Shown here piece after piece: positions 2,921 to 64,000 of a stretch of DNA of 64,000 bases. Position 1 is the stretch's first letter. Each line of letters begins with the position of its first letter. The stretch lies in sequence record NC_041871.1; one strand, given 5' to 3'. This DNA comes from Escherichia phage Murica. The translations under genes and the position numbers were made by a program. Below the pieces are notes generated by a model. The model saw nothing but the letters and a program-made list of their open reading frames with translations. It searched no databases and was not told the origin of the DNA.

Positions 2921-4105
2921 TTAAGCTTTAGCCAAAATGGCGCTAAACTCTTCACCAAACTCTTTTACAATCTTCATCAGGTTTGGGTATGCTTTGATCA
3001 GCTGAGCAACAATCTTGTCACGCCCTTTACCGATAAGCAAGGCATTTCCTAAGGCATTAGGTTTCATCATCGCCATAAAGACTGAGAATACAAAATCTCG
3101 GTTCTCGTCCTTGAAGTTTTCCCAAAGGAAATCGAGGAAGTTTGCCACGCAGCTGACAAGATCTTCGTCTGAGATACTTGCATTTTCCATCATATTGCGA
3201 ATAGCGATACAACCTTCAGATCCAAGAATCCACAAAATGTCTGGCTGCTTAGGACCTACGTATTCTTTGCAGCCACCTGCCATAATCCGACCGATTTCCG
3301 GTAAATTACGTTTCTTGGTGTGGTAAGTCCAGATCTCTACCGCTGCAGTGTGACCAATAGCACCTTGTAGAAGAACACGGGCCATAGCGTCAGAAATAAT
3401 ACCGCTGTCAAAATCGTGCAAGATGTCAGATGCAGCAACCCAAGATCGTGGTGTGGCAAAAGATGGACAATTAATCTCAGCCATAGCCTCATAATTATCA
3501 ATAGCTGATGGAACTCTTTTCAGATACCCAATTACAGAGGAGTGAACCCCGTTGAGGAATGCGTAGTCCTCAATAAACACCTCTGCATTGCTTGTAACCT
3601 CTACAATGATAAAACGGTTAGCCAGAGGGGCTTCGAGCGCCGAAAGAACCGCACCATCTGTAGAACGGTTACCCGCAGCCACAAAAACAGAACCCTTAGG
3701 GAATGCATAGGTGCCGCACTTGTGGTCAAGCATAATTTGCATTGCAACCTTTTGCAGGTAGTTATCTGCATGAGTGAGCTCATCCAGAAAGATAATTCCG
3801 CTCCAGTCAGGATCCGCAGGCCAAAATTCTGGAATTGCAAACACTGTACGTGTAGTTCCATCCGCTTCTACAGGGATAGGTAGCCCAGATAAGTCGGCAG
3901 GATCTTTATCTGACAGTCGCACGTCAACAAGGTTGTCATCTCGCTCACCGAACATATTATCAGCGATCTGCTTCATCACCTGGCTTTTACCCACACCCAT
4001 TGGTCCCAAAATTAGGACAGATCGGCTATGACGTTGGGCAAACTGAATAATAGCTGGCAACTCACGGACAGTGATTTGACCACTTTCGAATACGTTTCTT
4101 GACAT
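2921..4105 (-). CDS. AAA+ ATPase, MoxR/CbbQ/CobS-like (AAA_5-type)
   Basis: Walker A GPMGVGKS, Walker B IIFLDEL, sensor-1-like VAAGN. 394 aa. Confidence 0.7.
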   Translation of the reverse strand: MSRNVFESGQITVRELPAIIQFAQRHSRSVLILGPMGVGKSQVMKQIADNMFGERDDNLVDVRLSDKDPADLSGLPIPVEADGTTRTVFAIPEFWPADPDWSGIIFLDELTHADNYLQKVAMQIMLDHKCGTYAFPKGSVFVAAGNRSTDGAVLSALEAPLANRFIIVEVTSNAEVFIEDYAFLNGVHSSVIGYLKRVPSAIDNYEAMAEINCPSFATPRSWVAASDILHDFDSGIISDAMARVLLQGAIGHTAAVEIWTYHTKKRNLPEIGRIMAGGCKEYVGPKQPDILWILGSEGCIAIRNMMENASISDEDLVSCVANFLDFLWENFKDENRDFVFSVFMAMMKPNALGNALLIGKGRDKIVAQLIKAYPNLMKIVKEFGEEFSAILAKA

Positions 4106-4801: not shown

Positions 4802-5059
4802 TCAGTCCACCTCTTCTTCTCGTTGTAGTTCAAGATACCCGTAGGTCTGGACATCTTGAAGGGTGTGGAACTCCCCCTCTGCCGCTAAGGCACGAACAAC
4901 TTGGCACAAAACCTTATGAGGAACTTCATCCAAACCTAGATTCAGTGCAGGAAACACCTTATCTAAGTCAACAAAATAAACGAACTGTAGCTCACCAGCT
5001 TCAAAAGGTGTATCTTCAATAAACATCTTCTCGGCATTAGTCAAGATCTGCACTTTCAT
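4802..5059 (-). CDS. hypothetical acidic protein, 85 aa
   Basis: ORF, tightly packed; acidic C-terminus (QREEEVD). Confidence 0.4.
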   Translation of the reverse strand: MKVQILTNAEKMFIEDTPFEAGELQFVYFVDLDKVFPALNLGLDEVPHKVLCQVVRALAAEGEFHTLQDVQTYGYLELQREEEVD

Positions 5060-5415
5060 TATTCTACCTCCTCTTCTTTTTCTTCGGCATTAGTTTCATG
5101 GCTACCCCACTCGGGAGTTTCCACCTCGATAGTAAACTCACGCACTACACGGTAATTGCCCATGAAGCGCTCTACTTCGTCAAGGCTTATGGAGAGGCCA
5201 TTGGCAACCAGGTCTGCAGCACCCTCTTCTACCAGGTAGTCCAGATTGGCTTCCAGAGCCTCAGGTTCAAACCCTGTCAATGCAATCAGATAACCTTCCC
5301 CTTCATCAGGGAGGACAATACAGCCCAATTGATTTTCTTTAAAAAGGCAGTGACCATCATTATTGATTGGGTGTTCATTGCAGTAAATAGCTGCACGATA
5401 AGTAACTTTAGACAT
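5059..5415 (-). CDS. hypothetical highly acidic protein (start trimmed to MSKVTYRA)
   Basis: Track ORF 5059-5436. ATG at 5413-5415 has GGAG 9 nt upstream and sits inside the 29-bp repeat. Strongly E/D-rich with a poly-Glu C-terminus. Confidence 0.45.
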   Translation of the reverse strand: MSKVTYRAAIYCNEHPINNDGHCLFKENQLGCIVLPDEGEGYLIALTGFEPEALEANLDYLVEEGAADLVANGLSISLDEVERFMGNYRVVREFTIEVETPEWGSHETNAEEKEEEVE

Positions 5416-5420
5416 CGGTA
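5392..5420 (-). repeat. 29-bp exact repeat, copy A (inverted relative to copy B at 7254-7282), spans the start codon
   Basis: Reverse complement of 5392-5420 equals 7254-7282 (TACCGATGTCTAAAGTTACTTATCGTGCA). Confidence 0.9.
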
Positions 5421-5428
5421 AGGTCTCC

Positions 5429-5707
5429 TTAGGCAATTGTCATTTTACATTCTTGAAATTTTAACACAAGACGGTGATTGTGTCTAGTGTCTAAAAAGAT
5501 TTTTTCAACCATCAGGCACACGGTATAACCGTCCATCTTGTTGACAACAAAATCTCCAGGATGAGGGAGGATGTCTCCCGGATTGGGGAAACATAGTCCA
5601 CTCAGAAAGGCATCGTCAGTGGTGGACTTAATAGATTTCCACACACTGTCTGCCTGAACATGTTCACCGACGTAATATACATTACCACATGCCTTCATCA
5701 TAGTCAA
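5429..5707 (-). CDS. hypothetical protein, 92 aa
   Basis: ORF in operon context. Confidence 0.4.
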   Translation of the reverse strand: MTMMKACGNVYYVGEHVQADSVWKSIKSTTDDAFLSGLCFPNPGDILPHPGDFVVNKMDGYTVCLMVEKIFLDTRHNHRLVLKFQECKMTIA

Positions 5708-6603
5708 ACCCTCGCATAAATTAAACTTGTATCAGTATACTTCTTTAATGGGTAAATATCCTGTCCATAGATGCAATCATTAAACACCTCATCTACCCAA
5801 AGGCTACACTTATATCCCATCATTTCTAAAACACCCATCTCTTCTTCGGTAAACTTATCACCGCTCTTGCAAGATGTCAATACCTCATTCTGAACTCTTG
5901 CTACCTCGAAGCGGTTATTGGCAATATCGCTATTGGCGATCAAATACTCACCTAGAGGGTGTGCGGCATTAAAGATGCACAGTGGACGGCTGACGTAATA
6001 GTCTCCAGGTGTATAAAAATTGTTGAGGTCTTTCACTAGAACATTCTTATCAGTCACTTCATTTATAACATCATGCATATCGCACATCTTTATATGTTTG
6101 AGGATTCCATCCCCCATCACAAAATAAAAACTTGCTGAGACACTTTCGGCATAGATCTTACTAGATCCGTTGTAGTTGTATTTTACTCGGATGCTAACGG
6201 GGGTTTTTCCTGTCGCGTTAGCCATCATCCAAAGAAATGGCAGCTCATACTTCTCCTCTGAGGAAACAAAAGGTGAGGTAGCCAGAGATCGAAAACCTCC
6301 AGAGAAGTTGAAAGTTACAGAACCGCTCCGGCGGTATGATACCGCGTATTCTACTTTTATATCGACATACCCATTGGAATAGGTGTGTCCTTCATTATCT
6401 AAATATGTCCACTTATCAGACCCAGATACCAATCTACGCTCAATAACCTTCATCACTATAGGAATTAATGGGTTGGTACAAACCGCTTTTGAAGTAGCTT
6501 TATCATCTAAAGCCTCGTAAATTGCAGAAAGGATGTCCCCAGCTGAAAGATTGGTTGTTATGTCCTGTTTCCACCGCGTACTAAAACTGTTAAGATTTGC
6601 CAT
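5704..6603 (-). CDS. hypothetical protein, 299 aa (first gene of the minus-strand accessory operon)
   Basis: ATG at 6601-6603 preceded by AGGAG; sits directly downstream of the minus-strand promoter. Confidence 0.5.
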   Translation of the reverse strand: MANLNSFSTRWKQDITTNLSAGDILSAIYEALDDKATSKAVCTNPLIPIVMKVIERRLVSGSDKWTYLDNEGHTYSNGYVDIKVEYAVSYRRSGSVTFNFSGGFRSLATSPFVSSEEKYELPFLWMMANATGKTPVSIRVKYNYNGSSKIYAESVSASFYFVMGDGILKHIKMCDMHDVINEVTDKNVLVKDLNNFYTPGDYYVSRPLCIFNAAHPLGEYLIANSDIANNRFEVARVQNEVLTSCKSGDKFTEEEMGVLEMMGYKCSLWVDEVFNDCIYGQDIYPLKKYTDTSLIYARV

Positions 6604-6643
6604 AAGTAAGTGCTCCTATGTTAGTTTTCTTTCGAATGGGTGC

Positions 6644-6672
6644 ACTATATTGTGGAGTTAGAGTAAAGTCAA
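6644..6672 (-). promoter_or_regulatory. sigma70-like promoter, TTGACT-N17-TATAGT, minus strand
   Basis: -35 is reverse complement of 6667-6672, -10 is reverse complement of 6644-6649, 17-nt spacer; about 40 nt upstream of the 6603 start. Confidence 0.55.
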
Positions 6673-6685
6673 CACGTTTTTGATG

Positions 6686-6714
6686 TTGACATCTGTTGAG
6701 ACAATTGATACGAT
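6686..6714 (+). promoter_or_regulatory. sigma70-like promoter, TTGACA-N17-TACGAT with TG extended -10, plus strand
   Basis: TTGACA at 6686-6691, 17-nt spacer, TACGAT at 6709-6714 preceded by TGA; upstream of ATG 6746. Confidence 0.5.
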
Positions 6715-6745
6715 TTCTTCACTTACAGAGCACGAGAGACGACTC

Positions 6746-7723
6746 ATGAATCTTGAAAAATATTATACACCAGAAGAGTTAGAGCGCTTGCTCAAAAAAT
6801 ATAGACGCAAACAGAATAACGCACGGAAACGAGATATAGAGTTCGACCTGTCATGGGAAGAATACCTCCTATTTGGTAAAAAACTTTTAGGAGATGGAGT
6901 ATGCGACTATACCCTTATACCTTTTGACATGCACACAGATGAAAACGGGCTGGGGAATCCTTTCTACCCATCCCTGGAGCGGATAGATGATGAAGGTCCT
7001 TATGCGGTTGATAACTGTTGTGTGGTGGGATTGAGATGCAACTCTCTAAAGGACTGTCTGGTAGATAAAAAGACTGCAGTCTTGATTAAAGACGAAACTG
7101 ATCGAAAAATTGTCCAGCAGATGATGCTCCACCTGAGCGAAGAGCGTATGGAGAAATTGAAAGGTGATTATACTTTTGAAGATTTCATCTTGCAATATGG
7201 AACGGAAGAGGATAAACTAGCACTCTTTGACGAAGAAGAGGAGGAAGATATGCTACCGATGTCTAAAGTTACTTATCGTGCACCCAAGAAGCACATTTCC
7301 GACATTGTAAACGAGCCTATCACAGAAGAGATTGAAGAAATGACGCAACAGGTGCATGAAGAGGAAAAAGAGACTCAGGAGGTCGAAGAGGAGCTTACAG
7401 AAGAGGTTCCTGCACTACCTGATGATGTTGAGATTGCCAAAGCTTACACTTTCTATTGTCAAACGTTCTACGATGTAGGTATGAAAGTTGATCTGTCGTT
7501 CAGCCAATTTAAGAGTTCGTATATTCGCAAATGCTGTGCTTTAACTGGTGAACGTCTTGGAGCTGGACTTAAACCCCTGTTGGTGACCGACTGGAATAAA
7601 GGTTTCACTAAAGGAAACTTTATGGTAGTATCTCCAATTATGGAGAAAGCTATGACAGATCTTATGAAGACCACCCGCATGACAATGACCGAGTTGGCAG
7701 GTATTTTCAAACACGTTAAATAA
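6746..7723 (+). CDS. hypothetical protein with an internally duplicated Cys-containing domain and an acidic linker
   Basis: Track ORF starts at TTG 6680 inside the promoter; re-called to ATG 6746 (GAGAG upstream). Both halves share the pattern D-x-x-F/L-x-x-S ... G-x-Y ... N-x-x-V. Contains copy B of the 29-bp repeat internally (…MLPMSKVTYRAP…). Confidence 0.5.
   Translation: MNLEKYYTPEELERLLKKYRRKQNNARKRDIEFDLSWEEYLLFGKKLLGDGVCDYTLIPFDMHTDENGLGNPFYPSLERIDDEGPYAVDNCCVVGLRCNSLKDCLVDKKTAVLIKDETDRKIVQQMMLHLSEERMEKLKGDYTFEDFILQYGTEEDKLALFDEEEEEDMLPMSKVTYRAPKKHISDIVNEPITEEIEEMTQQVHEEEKETQEVEEELTEEVPALPDDVEIAKAYTFYCQTFYDVGMKVDLSFSQFKSSYIRKCCALTGERLGAGLKPLLVTDWNKGFTKGNFMVVSPIMEKAMTDLMKTTRMTMTELAGIFKHVK
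7254..7282 (+). repeat. 29-bp exact repeat, copy B
   Basis: Identical to the reverse complement of 5392-5420; encodes the same peptide MSKVTYRA. Confidence 0.9.
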
Positions 7724-7756: not shown

Positions 7757-9217
7757 ATGGATAGCAGAAGTTCAGAAATCATTGCCTCTCAGAAAGATGA
7801 TGCCCTGAGAATGTTGCAGGCTGCACGTATGTATCTCCTTGAAAAGCTGCCGTTTTATGGCACACTACTGTCAGGGTTGCAGTTCGTAGAAAACCACACA
7901 TGGTGCTCCACCATGGCAACCGACCATAAACGCATCTATTACAGTCCTGAGTTCATTATGGGATTGGCTGATGAACGCAAGGCTATTCTTAAGGCTTCTC
8001 TAACTGACGAGCAGTTTGAGATGGCTGAAGTTTTCTATTCCCCAAAATCTGTGAAAGAGGTGGCCTTCCTTCTGTCACATGAGGTGGGGCATATTATCTG
8101 TGATCACCTAGTCCGTGGTAAAAGCTTTGAGCCGGAACTGTTCAATATTGCTTGTGATCACGTTATCAACACAGGCCTTGTGGTTGACTTTAGCAAACCT
8201 CCTTGTGTTTTCTTCCCGAAGGGGAAAAGCACTACGTTCATGAAAGGTAAGCCTTTTGGCTTCTTAGCCAGCTGCTACTGCGACATGAAGTTTCATGGAT
8301 GGATTGCTGAGAACGTTTATGCAGTTCTTGATAAGCAAAGAGATCAGAATAACGGTAAAAGTAAGAACGGTAAAGGTGAGAACTCTCAAAGCGATAAGCG
8401 ACAAACCGATGATCACATGAGTGGGAACGGTGGCACCAGTGATAATCTTGGAAAGGCTATGGGGTATGATCAGCCACAACCTGTAATCAGCCAATCTGAT
8501 AAAGATCAGGCCATGCAGGACTCTGGTGATATGCTGGAGGCAGCAATGCAAGCGTCCGGAGGCCGTTGCCCTGAGGCGGTGCGTGAGTTTGTCAAGAACA
8601 GAGGTAAGCCTGTAATCAACTATATAGACATCATTAAGCAACGTATGTTGTCTAAAAGAAAGGCCGAACTGACCTACAGAAAACCTGGTCGCCGATCTGG
8701 GTCTTTGACCAGCACAATGCGAAAAGTTGGGGCTATAAACAAGAACCAGCACGTTATTGTTCCTGGTCGTAATCCGGAAAACACTATAGATATTGTGGTG
8801 GCTTTAGACGTTTCTGGCTCGATCTCTCAAAGAACTTTAAAGAAAATGTTCAATGAAATCACCGGATTGTGCAATCTGTATAAAGAGTTTAAGGTTACAA
8901 TGTTCTGTTGGTCAACTGAGGTTGGAGAGGTTAAAGTATACACTCGCGGCAACATAGACGAGATGGTCAACTATGAGGTCCACTCAACATGGGGCACAAC
9001 AGCTGCTTGCGTGTTCGAGTATCTGGATGCCAACATACCTAATGCAAAAGATGTCATCGTCCTGACCGACCTATACTTTGAGCATAACTTTGAACAAAAG
9101 GTTGTTGACAACAAGTGGAAAAAGTACGATACTCTATGGGTCCTCACTAAGGGGTATAATAAAAATTATATCCCGAGCTTTGGGAAAACTGTGGAATTAA
9201 TCGAGTACGCTAAGTAA
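7757..9217 (+). CDS. vWA-domain protein with N-terminal HExxH metallopeptidase-like domain (DUF2201-like, usual partner of MoxR ATPases)
   Basis: HExxH in LLSHEVGHIICDHL; MIDAS-like DxSxS in VALDVSGSIS. Start re-called from 7736 (inside the hairpin) to ATG 7757. Confidence 0.6.
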   Translation: MDSRSSEIIASQKDDALRMLQAARMYLLEKLPFYGTLLSGLQFVENHTWCSTMATDHKRIYYSPEFIMGLADERKAILKASLTDEQFEMAEVFYSPKSVKEVAFLLSHEVGHIICDHLVRGKSFEPELFNIACDHVINTGLVVDFSKPPCVFFPKGKSTTFMKGKPFGFLASCYCDMKFHGWIAENVYAVLDKQRDQNNGKSKNGKGENSQSDKRQTDDHMSGNGGTSDNLGKAMGYDQPQPVISQSDKDQAMQDSGDMLEAAMQASGGRCPEAVREFVKNRGKPVINYIDIIKQRMLSKRKAELTYRKPGRRSGSLTSTMRKVGAINKNQHVIVPGRNPENTIDIVVALDVSGSISQRTLKKMFNEITGLCNLYKEFKVTMFCWSTEVGEVKVYTRGNIDEMVNYEVHSTWGTTAACVFEYLDANIPNAKDVIVLTDLYFEHNFEQKVVDNKWKKYDTLWVLTKGYNKNYIPSFGKTVELIEYAK

Positions 9218-54939: not shown

Positions 54940-55917
54940 TTATTTGTTAGATTCTGCACGTGCACGAGCAAGTGCTTTTGCAACGTTTTCAGCAAGAATT
55001 TCTTCTGCGGATTTTGCAATATCATCCACAACAGGTTCGCCATCATTACCATGTTCAGTGGTGGCAAACTCTTCTTTGGTTTTATGCACCTCTGCTTCCA
55101 GCTCTTCAATTTTTGCTTGAGCTTTCTCCAGCATAGCTACGATAGGTTCGTTAGCTTTTTCCAGCATGAAGTCAACCAGGGTTGCATGATCTTCTTCACC
55201 AACAAAGCTTAAAGCTTGAGCCTTAGTCAGCATTTTAGCTTTTTCAACTTCAACCTGGGCCTTGATGATTTCTTCAGCTTTACTCTGGGTTGCTTTCAGC
55301 TCTTCTACTTGCTTCAGCAGATCCAGATACTCTTTAGTTTTGGTTACGTCCACCGGATTCTCCTCGGTATTTGCGGATTTTGCAATATCATCCACCTCGG
55401 TAGTTTTATCCACCTCAGCAGGTTCCTGTACCGCCTTGATCAGGTTCCCTTCTTTATCGAAGAGATCAGCGGTTACTTGTTCAAAAATCTGTTGTGTTTT
55501 TAACAGGCTGTACTGATCTACCACACTAAGCTGCTTGCCTTCTTTTGCAGCCTTATGAATGGTCACGTTATCACAACGCTCTTCCAGCCATGCAATACAA
55601 GACTCTGCGTCAGCTTGCGCCCATTCCCAATCAGGATGCTCTTTAGCCCAAGCCTCCTCTTCAATCTCAAAACCAAGAATGTGTGCAAGTGCTTTAGCAT
55701 CATCATACCACATATCGAAGAAACGACGCAGGTATTCTTCAAAACTAAGCTCCACAGTAACTTGGCGAAGTGCCTTAACAATATCGTCTGTTAACTGCTC
55801 CGGCTTAAGATCACTCTTCATCAAAAGAGATACAGGTCTGTTGTTAGCGCTATAGCCTTGCGCCTTATGGCACAGGGCGATCCCCTTCTCTTTAATAGTA
55901 ATCGTTTTTTCAGACAT
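54940..55917 (-). CDS. scaffolding protein, 325 aa
   Basis: Acidic, Lys/Glu/Ala-rich helical sequence; position between protease-like and capsid genes. Confidence 0.5.
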   Translation of the reverse strand: MSEKTITIKEKGIALCHKAQGYSANNRPVSLLMKSDLKPEQLTDDIVKALRQVTVELSFEEYLRRFFDMWYDDAKALAHILGFEIEEEAWAKEHPDWEWAQADAESCIAWLEERCDNVTIHKAAKEGKQLSVVDQYSLLKTQQIFEQVTADLFDKEGNLIKAVQEPAEVDKTTEVDDIAKSANTEENPVDVTKTKEYLDLLKQVEELKATQSKAEEIIKAQVEVEKAKMLTKAQALSFVGEEDHATLVDFMLEKANEPIVAMLEKAQAKIEELEAEVHKTKEEFATTEHGNDGEPVVDDIAKSAEEILAENVAKALARARAESNK

Positions 55918-63884: not shown

Positions 63885-63967
63885 GTGTCCGTATCACGGA
63901 CAGTTAGTGTCCGTATTACGGGCAGATGTGTCCGCGTGACGGACAGTGGTGTCCGTATCACGGACAG
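63885..63967. repeat. array of four 19-bp palindromic repeats at 21-22 bp spacing (candidate operator or iteron array)
   Basis: 63885-63903 GTGTCCGTATCACGGACAG; 63907-63925 GTGTCCGTATTACGGGCAG; 63928-63946 GTGTCCGCGTGACGGACAG; 63949-63967 GTGTCCGTATCACGGACAG. Core GTCCGT-N3-ACGGAC is a perfect inverted repeat in copies 1 and 4. Confidence 0.85.
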
Positions 63968-64000
63968 TTAATAGTTTCTGTTCCATGGTGAACATAAAAC

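Follow-up and report, generated by a model that had tools for sequence, protein, structure and literature searches.

A 29-bp inverted repeat linking gp008 and gp011 in a Vequintavirus as a probable templated mutational scar

The gp008-gp011 locus and its repeat

The window, by which we mean the whole 64-kb stretch of DNA analysed here, is from an rV5-like Vequintavirus. On the minus strand it carries gp008 (5059..5415), which encodes a 118-aa acidic protein of unknown function (phrog_12908) that is restricted to Vequintavirus and was found in 115 phage records, every one of them Vequintavirus-type. The gp008 ATG, at 5415-5413 on the minus strand, is the start annotated for this gene in relatives, and its Shine-Dalgarno sequence, AGGAG, lies at 5425-5429. 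On the plus strand gp011 (6746..7723) encodes 325 aa, in which an acidic linker separates two conserved domains (aa 1-145 and 226-325). The protein matches phrog_3118 (E=6.5e-113), with weaker matches over aa 13-130 to the Srd anti-sigma, sigma70 decoy and endonuclease VII families, and its annotations vary between anti-sigma factor, HNH endonuclease and anti-termination protein. Pfam and PDB sequence searches with gp008-gp011 returned no match, gp009 and gp010 having no Pfam family and belonging to PHROGs of unknown function. A consensus scan predicted a divergent pair of sigma70-like promoters between gp010 and gp011 (6644..6714), and promoters were also predicted at the equivalent position in the record of phage Gotham.

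The two domains of gp011 are conserved across five other genera, where the flanking domain blocks mostly retain 35-64% identity, falling to 27-29% at both termini. In comparison with the same five outgroup genera the linker (aa 146-225; 7181..7420, plus strand) is hypervariable, with 10-19% identity and 28-53% gaps. Its content of aspartate and glutamate reaches 44%, and judged by composition and conservation it looks disordered. A single-sequence AlphaFold2 model of gp011 had a mean pLDDT of 34, too low to be informative. We also considered whether the amino- and carboxy-terminal domains were internal duplicates of one another and dropped the idea (BLASTP E = 0.81).

The sequence TACCGATGTCTAAAGTTACTTATCGTGCA occurs exactly twice in the window, at 5392-5420 on the minus strand and at 7254-7282 on the plus strand, so that one arm is the reverse complement of the other over 29 of 29 nucleotides with 0 mismatches. 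The arms are 1833 nt apart and form the longest, and the only, perfect inverted repeat of the 64 kb, where no further match was found at up to 3 mismatches. The minus-strand copy comprises the 5 nt of gp008 leader immediately before the ATG (TACCG) and codons 1-8 (MSKVTYRA). The plus-strand copy lies in the gp011 linker, where it covers codons 170-179 (LPMSKVTYRA); it starts 508 nt past the gp011 start codon and its ATG 513 nt past, with MSKVTYRA again in frame as codons 172-179. The exact repeat, both its positions and the shared peptide had been described in an earlier sequence-only reading, and all hold. That reading had also placed the Shine-Dalgarno-proximal region and the ATG of gp008 within the repeat; the ATG is indeed there, but the Shine-Dalgarno sequence falls outside.

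Apart from the shortness of the repeat, nothing points to chance, to convergence on a preferred peptide or to an error of sequencing or assembly, and we regard such an origin as scarcely credible. None of 100 dinucleotide shuffles yielded a match to the 29-mer, and by our own arithmetic the probability of the 13-nt core described below matching anywhere in ~137 kb, both strands included, is ~0.004. Convergence is excluded because synonymous positions are identical as well. The earlier judgement that the match was not chance holds. The same two exact copies recur in 21 phage records, which represent many separate isolates, so the assembly artefact that had been named as a possible undoing of the observation does not apply.

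Short and long alleles of the gp011 linker

The two copies differ markedly in their distribution. The minus-strand copy is the native start of gp008. Each of the 17 Vequintavirus relatives read base by base has it, at 0-2 mismatches, and it occurs again in IMG/VR, in a single Vequintavirus-type contig. The gp011 copy, which we term the short allele and which phages such as CM1, LL12 and FFH2 carry, was found in 26 of 115 sequenced relatives. For the remaining 89, rV5 included, the gp011 linker has a longer, unrelated core of the form ...ACCGATG-25 nt-ATCGTGCAGC..., and rV5 itself has the gp008 copy only. Most relatives thus present the situation that the sequence-only reading had named as one that would refute it, an ordinary gene with no second copy. 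A third copy, which that reading had proposed to look for, was not found, no record having the 29-mer in more than two places, and a search of 5,426 E. coli genomes gave no match.

A nucleotide alignment of 18 gp011 linkers allowed the two alleles to be compared base by base. To the left, the motif ACCGATG (7255..7261) pre-exists in long alleles, for example those of JES2013 and O157 typing phage 14. To the right, ATCGTGCA (7275..7282) lies where long alleles such as that of JES2013 have ATCGTGCAGC, a 10-nt match to the gp008 start. Between them the 13-nt core TCTAAAGTTACTT (7262..7274) stands in place of the 25-nt long-allele core CAGGATTTTAAAAATTTCATGGCTG. The long allele therefore already matched the gp008 start over the 7 and 10 bases flanking the replaced core, which would mean that 13 gp008-templated nucleotides replaced 25 between pre-existing microhomologies; the net change of -12 nt keeps the reading frame, and at the protein level the short allele has 12 aa where the long one has 16 aa. 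Three substitutions unique to the short allele, at 7253, 7283 and 7288, abut the patch. It is possible that they reflect error-prone synthesis, later drift or compensation.

The long allele spans several deep linker haplotypes, with within-group divergence of up to 13-15%, and occurs in Aya, the most divergent Vequintavirus read, as well as in the IMG/VR contig. The outgroup genera weakly resemble the long form. Haplotype diversity of the short allele is ~1%, and 25 of its 26 records are identical over 106 nt. Among the relatives fetched, the nearest long alleles differ from the short haplotype (EEMTQQVHEEEKETQ) by 3.5% upstream and 11.6% downstream, and an exact search of IMG/VR with a haplotype-specific 32-mer found no long-allele ancestor. 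Downstream of the patch the short haplotype is ~12% diverged from all the long alleles sampled, and its immediate ancestor is therefore not among them. Once formed, the copies have not been kept alike. They differ at 3 positions in ECP32, and one exact copy is left in nomine, Alma, A51.2 and PMBT16; comparison of these five carriers shows divergence and no homogenisation of the two copies.

These distributions bear on two functional readings that had been proposed for the repeat. In the first, the patch would supply a new internal translation start, or improve an existing one, and so release the gp011 C-domain as a free isoform of 154 aa beginning at MSKVTYRA. The in-frame ATG, which is at 7259-7261 and not at 7266 as had been stated, is followed by the same first eight codons as those of an expressed gene, and an SD-like GGAGG lies at 7240-7244. 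However, this GGAGG is 14 nt from the ATG at 7259, which is too far, and 5 nt from another ATG at 7250 that is itself outside the repeat. SD-like strings are also an inevitable by-product of glutamate codons (GAGGAG), and the Shine-Dalgarno sequence of gp008 is absent from the copied patch. The ATG together with the GGAGGAAGATATG motif was found in both alleles (18 of 18 sequences) and so predates the patch, as does the upstream GGAGG...ATG arrangement in being common to both. The evidence leaves the internal start unsupported, and we consider it very unlikely.

The second is that the 29-mer is a shared RNA operator, through which gp008 and a gp011 product would be co-regulated by an RNA-binding translational repressor like RegA or gp32 of T4. 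The predicted promoters are divergent, and the copies would therefore lie in different, opposite transcripts, each in the sense orientation, with the gp008 copy overlapping its initiation codon as such an operator should. Against this, the gp011 copy is missing from the 89 of 115 relatives that retain both genes, it sits 513 nt inside the ORF and away from the gp011 ribosome-binding site, and in five carriers the copies have drifted apart. No complete genome has a third copy. A common RNA fold was likewise absent; the two contexts fold differently and neither significantly (z = -1.9 around the gp008 copy and 0.0 around the gp011 copy). The proposal of an operator thus finds no support, and we rate it as even less probable than the internal start.

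Recombination blocks and the orientation of the intervening segment

The repeat had further been suggested to mark a recombination junction or a module boundary, with breakpoints to be sought at the repeat in relatives. We found no mosaic breakpoint at the gp011 copy. A haplotype block of ~0.6 kb (6973-7576 in comparison with phage I29) surrounds the short allele, and the recombination breakpoint of phage inoa is at 7094-7129, away from the repeat. On the gp008 side, JES2013 drops from 100% identity to ~94% between 5420 and 5517, and the identity of I29 and 10C2 switches after 5362; these changes fall near the gp008/gp009 gene boundary, at a resolution too coarse to assign them to the repeat. 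Recombination in the broad sense survives from the earlier suggestion, as the footprint of templated copying, but the module boundary does not, the block ending elsewhere.

Two inverted arms could also serve as the substrate for inversion of the 1.8-kb segment between them, which contains gp009, gp010, the divergent promoters and the amino-terminal half of gp011. In one orientation the locus would encode gp008 and gp011, and in the other an in-frame gp011N::gp008 fusion together with the gp011 C-domain on its own. In a simulated inversion neither chimeric ORF was interrupted or lost its frame: the fusion came to 289 aa when numbered from the annotated MNLEK start, and the C-domain, of 154 aa, stood behind the gp008 Shine-Dalgarno sequence. 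The chimeric junctions would read GATATGC+29-mer+GCTATTTAC and GGAGACCT+29-mer+CCCAAGAAG. The frame carries little weight, however, as any viable patch would have been in frame in any case. Each of the 114 full-length phage matches was one collinear piece, the chimeric junction was not found in IMG/VR, and none of the 7 ORFs scanned between 4419 and 9217 matched a recombinase family. Furthermore, homologous recombination works poorly on as little as 29 bp. Of the features that define invertible segments, the locus has the flanking inverted repeats, and we found neither an adjacent recombinase nor both orientations among isolates. That the repeat is an inversion substrate is highly improbable, on a par with the operator, and the same slender odds attach to the idea that short-allele phages occasionally invert this early-promoter segment between arms sharing a reading frame. 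Were it true, inversion would give a lytic phage population a recombination-based means of shuffling its early host-takeover domains.

Origin of the gp011 copy and comparison with known systems

We consider that the plus-strand copy is a mutational scar templated by the start of gp008 and then spread by recombination, with a probability of roughly 0.85. The polarity from donor to recipient, the flanking microhomologies, the restricted distribution and the lack of homogenisation can all be seen in the aligned genomes, and the pattern is the one characteristic of inverted template switching or of microhomology-primed short-patch conversion. In a phage ancestral to one of the gp011 linker haplotypes, DNA synthesis, whether fork-associated or part of break repair, would have left its template past ACCGATG and resumed on the reverse-complementary gp008 start 1.8 kb away, copying ~13-29 nt before returning to the gp011 template through the microhomology ATCGTGCA. 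The outcome would be the in-frame replacement of 25 nt by 13 nt, changing SPMQDFKNFMADRAAN to LPMSKVTYRAPK and making a perfect 29-bp inverted repeat of one that had been split and imperfect. The change may have been tolerated because its target was a disordered-looking, hypervariable acidic linker. The short allele would later have spread among Vequintaviruses through ordinary homologous recombination, as part of the ~0.6-kb block. We infer both the neutrality of the change and its enzymology, whether a replicative template switch or microhomology-primed repair synthesis. Elsewhere in the window, the scaffold gene contains a second short exact repeat, of 24 nt (55006, 55372), likewise with a conserved donor and a variable recipient.

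The repeat looks like an ordinary scar of DNA copying or repair and not like a regulatory element, and the 29-mer patch opens no long-standing question. Its interest is as a clean natural case of templated multi-nucleotide mutation in a lytic phage, for which donor, recipient, ancestral state and microhomologies are all readable from ~115 genomes. It would suggest that templated events can use a donor ~1.8 kb away and rewrite a dozen linker residues in one step, the product then spreading as part of a recombination block. For annotators and for those scanning genomes it is a caution that short perfect repeats over phage start codons are not necessarily regulatory. A cluster of mutations in a hypervariable linker can likewise have arisen as one event, a point to bear in mind in dN/dS and dating analyses.

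Phage translational operators shared by several mRNAs are known, the targets of T4 RegA among them. The 29-mer resembles these in being a short sequence over an initiation codon that is repeated on another mRNA. It departs from them in its second site, which falls within an ORF, lacks conservation across relatives and has not stayed identical. A closer parallel is the quasipalindrome template-switch model, which was first proposed from mutations in phage T4 rII. As in that model, the patch is a one-step cluster of substitutions and indels whose new sequence is the reverse complement of sequence elsewhere in the molecule; an imperfect inverted repeat was turned into a perfect one with the donor unchanged, and several adjacent amino-acid replacements resulted in a coding region. 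The long alleles preserve the ancestral imperfect inverted repeat bracketing the changed tract (ACCGATG and ATCGTGCAGC), and the change is consistent with one multi-nucleotide event on one lineage with an older, unchanged donor. The spacing is different, a donor at 1833 nt being well beyond the expected tens to ~100 nt.

Template switching between imperfect inverted repeats, homogenising the arms and causing multi-residue replacements, has been documented in yeast (PMC8604942) and in great apes (PMC7954356). The short-range switches surveyed there had spacers of no more than 70 nt or donors within ~100 nt (PMC8604942; PMC7954356), in contrast to the distance of 1833 nt and the long tract (13-29 nt) seen here. 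That distance makes a hairpin intermediate implausible for the gp008/gp011 patch, which may be better accounted for by break repair or by a route between molecules. Template switches also occur during repair synthesis (bioRxiv 10.1101/2023.08.09.552703). The patch shares with templated insertions made in double-strand-break repair, and with microhomology-primed short-patch ectopic conversion, a short tract from a non-allelic donor and bounding microhomologies of 7-10 nt; its nearby untemplated substitutions are compatible with error-prone synthesis, and for such repair distance would be no constraint.

An exact inverted repeat shared by gp008 and gp011

The 29-mer TACCGATGTCTAAAGTTACTTATCGTGCA occurs exactly twice in the window, on the minus strand at 5392-5420 and on the plus strand at 7254-7282. 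With an arm spacing of 1833 nt, the pair is both the longest and the sole perfect inverted repeat of the 64 kb. No other site with three or fewer mismatches was found in the 64-kb window, and none of 100 dinucleotide-preserving shuffles contained a match. The sequence-only reading had judged the match not due to chance, and this view is borne out. The minus copy comprises 5 nt of leader and codons 1-8 of the 118-aa acidic protein (ATG 5415-5413), and the plus copy covers codons 170-179 of the 325-aa ORF 6746-7723. Both encode MSKVTYRA in frame, as had been stated, and the 29-mer is sense-oriented in each mRNA, which makes the two RNAs identical over this stretch instead of complementary. Two details of that reading needed correction. 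The ATG of the plus copy lies at 7259-7261, not at 7266, where an internal start had been placed, and the SD of the acidic-protein gene, AGGAG (5425-5429), falls outside the repeat.

Shigella phage CM1 and Escherichia phage pangalan match the region at 99.9% identity, and 118 records from the genus Vequintavirus (rV5-like phages) do so at 88-100%. In the rV5-type gene numbering, taken from annotated relatives, the acidic protein is gp008 (minus strand; phrog_12908, unknown function), which is confined to Vequintavirus, and the 325-aa protein is gp011 (plus strand; phrog_3118, E=6.5e-113). Labels for gp011 vary among records between anti-sigma factor, HNH endonuclease and anti-termination protein; residues 13-130 give weaker matches to Srd anti-sigma, sigma70-decoy and endonuclease VII families, and searches of Pfam and the PDB returned no family and no sequence relative. 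A divergent sigma70-like promoter pair is predicted at 6644-6714, likewise in the phage Gotham record, which places gp008 and gp011 on oppositely directed transcripts. At 5458-5486 (minus), within the 3'-terminal part of gp009 and shortly before gp008, a further sigma70-like match is predicted (TAGACA-17-TAAAAT, upstream TG), so gp008 may have its own promoter besides read-through from the divergent early promoter.

Several other features of the window were observed. A MoxR-type ATPase gene (2921-4105, minus) and a DUF2201 gene (7757-9217, plus), the latter with a putative metallopeptidase N-domain and a VWA-like domain, bracket the early region on opposite strands and may form a phage-encoded MoxR/VWA pair; several records label 7757-9217 as HNH endonuclease or anti-sigma factor, which misfits its Pfam content. 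At 63885-63970, four tandem units (21-22 nt long, all with the palindrome GTGTCCGTATCACGGACA) directly follow an AT-rich stretch at the window end that appears to be intergenic; they look like an operator or iteron array. Sixteen 'Campylobacter phage' records (MG0656xx, e.g. MG065635.1, L-series; host C. jejuni) are 93-99.6% identical to the region, and probably carry a wrong host or label or are contaminated.

A probable gp008-derived patch in the gp011 linker

We extracted both sites from 17 relatives with 88-100% identity to the window. The gp008 copy was present in all 17, with 0-2 mismatches. The gp011 copy was present in only five besides the window (exact in LL12, Gotham, FFH2 and inoa, one mismatch in ECP32), and the type phage rV5 has the gp008 copy only. 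In the other 12 relatives the gp011 protein reads ...EEDMSPMQDFKNFMA(D/N/E)R(A/G)ANKHISDIV..., as against ...EEEDMLPMSKVTYRAPKKHISDIV.... When records were counted with a 106-nt query, 26 of 115 (25 identical, ECP32 at 97%) had the short allele, the gp011 linker that contains the 29-mer, and the remaining 89 had the long allele, with a longer core. Judged from these sequences, the two copies differ in history.

Aligning the alleles defines the replacement. In sense orientation the gp008 start reads GGAGACCT T, ACCGATG, a 13-nt core TCTAAAGTTACTT, the right match ATCGTGCA and GCTATT. The short gp011 allele reads GATATGC T, ACCGATG, the same 13-nt core TCTAAAGTTACTT, ATCGTGCA and CCCAAG, and the long allele (JES2013, O157 typing phage 14) reads GATATGT C, ACCGATG, a 25-nt core CAGGATTTTAAAAATTTCATGGCTG, ATCGTGCA and GCCAAC. 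Outside its core, the long allele already agrees with the gp008 start over 7 nt to the left and 10 nt to the right, the latter being ATCGTGCAGC. The 25-nt core is exchanged for 13 nt of gp008 sequence, a shortening by 12 nt that leaves the reading frame intact. The same in-frame peptide from both copies is simply the sole viable result of such a patch. By our own arithmetic, the chance of an unrelated 13-nt core matching within ~137 kb on both strands is ~0.004, and convergence is excluded because the identity covers synonymous positions too.

Four lines of evidence identify gp008 as donor and the long allele as the older state. All relatives read contain the gp008 copy, and the gene itself occurs genus-wide. 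The long allele spans several deep linker haplotypes, with divergence within groups of up to 13-15%, against ~1% diversity for the short haplotype. It is carried by Aya, the most divergent Vequintavirus read (88%), and by the sole IMG/VR contig recovered. Finally, a weak resemblance to the long form (e.g. EDF..., ...AE..HK) is seen in the gp011 homologues of five other Vequintavirinae genera. All sampled long alleles differ from the short haplotype by ~12% downstream of the patch, so that its direct ancestor is missing from the sample and no date can be given to the event.

Alignment to outgroups (Seunavirus, Mydovirus, Henunavirus, Avunavirus and one unclassified Salmonella phage) revealed conserved gp011 blocks at residues 1-145 and 226-325. 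The linker between them varies from almost nil (Av-05) to ~80 residues, with 10-19% identity to the outgroups, 28-53% gaps and up to 44% D+E. The patch, at residues 170-181, is mid-linker, and this variable location would explain its tolerance.

Functional readings and spread of the short allele

The sequence-only reading had also proposed an internal start or a shared operator; neither is supported. The ATG equivalent to 7259 and the upstream GGAGGAAGATATG (7240-7252) occur in both alleles (18/18 sequences), GGAGG lies 14 nt from ATG 7259 but 5 nt from ATG 7250, and the gp008 SD was not copied into gp011. Any internal-start potential is therefore older than, and independent of, the patch. The SD-like GGAGGAAGATATG, 5 nt before the in-frame ATG 7250 in the linker, could itself serve throughout the genus to start translation of the gp011 C-terminal domain internally, or be no more than a by-product of Glu codons. 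Copy identity is not maintained, since ECP32 has 3 differences between its copies, and nomine, Alma, A51.2 and PMBT16 retain a single exact copy. A third copy was absent from every genome searched, and in 5,426 E. coli genomes the 29-mer did not occur at all. The two contexts gave different RNA folds, neither significant (z = -1.9 for gp008, 0.0 for gp011).

In simulation, inversion across the 29-bp arms would yield in-frame products, namely the fusion gp011N::gp008 and a separate gp011 C-domain of 154 aa. Yet the 114 full-length phage matches are without exception collinear, the chimeric junction had no match in IMG/VR, and the seven ORFs scanned in the vicinity of the repeat matched no recombinase family.

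Mosaicism is visible in sliding-window identity and variable-site lists. The phage inoa follows the JohannBauhin difference pattern to 7094 and is identical to the window from 7129, and differences between the window and I29 are essentially confined to 6973-7576; the short allele therefore moves by homologous recombination in a ~0.6-kb block. On the gp008 side, JES2013 has a breakpoint between 5420 and 5517, and I29/10C2 switch after 5362. These positions are close to the junction of gp008 and gp009, as is common in phage mosaics, and the resolution is too coarse to assign them to the repeat. The repeat had been suggested as a recombination marker; it does appear to be the footprint of templated copying, but the ends of the ~0.6-kb block lie elsewhere.

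Mechanism and comparison with known template switches

The event would be a long-range inverted template switch between imperfect inverted repeats. The reverse-complement tract, the prior imperfect inverted-repeat ends, the unchanged donor and the one-step replacement of several residues are together characteristic of such a switch. An ectopic short-patch conversion, primed by microhomology in the course of break repair, would have the same outcome, and both fit the sequence equally. Abutting the 29-nt tract, the substitutions T>C, G>C and C>G at 7253, 7283 and 7288, relative to long alleles and donor, occur only in the short-allele haplotype. They may be errors of the same synthesis event, which fits error-prone repair synthesis, or equally later changes.

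We also observed an exact 24-nt direct repeat (55006-55029 and 55372-55395) in the head scaffold gene (54940-55917, minus), both copies encoding VDDIAKSA. JEP1 conserves the C-terminal copy, and Klebsiella phage BIS47 does so in the form TEDLAKSA. The acidic stretch around the upstream copy is variable, and there JEP1 has VDNVDKSA and BIS47 has VQNTIENK. From these two relatives, this is probably a second short-patch homogenisation between quasi-repeats, in direct orientation.

The template-switch model for imperfect inverted repeats was first proposed from phage T4 mutations, and the 29-mer pair adds a new case to this known kind of mutation. Template switching has been surveyed in yeast coding genes, between imperfect inverted repeats (PMC8604942), and in great-ape genomes (PMC7954356). 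As in those cases, the inverted-repeat arms were homogenised and several residues changed in one step. In the surveyed switches, however, spacers were ≤70 nt or donors lay within ~100 nt, whereas here the distance is 1833 nt, and because it lacks this proximity we label the event a long-range switch or ectopic conversion. It is notable mainly for the 1.8 kb between donor and recipient and for the completeness with which it can be reconstructed.
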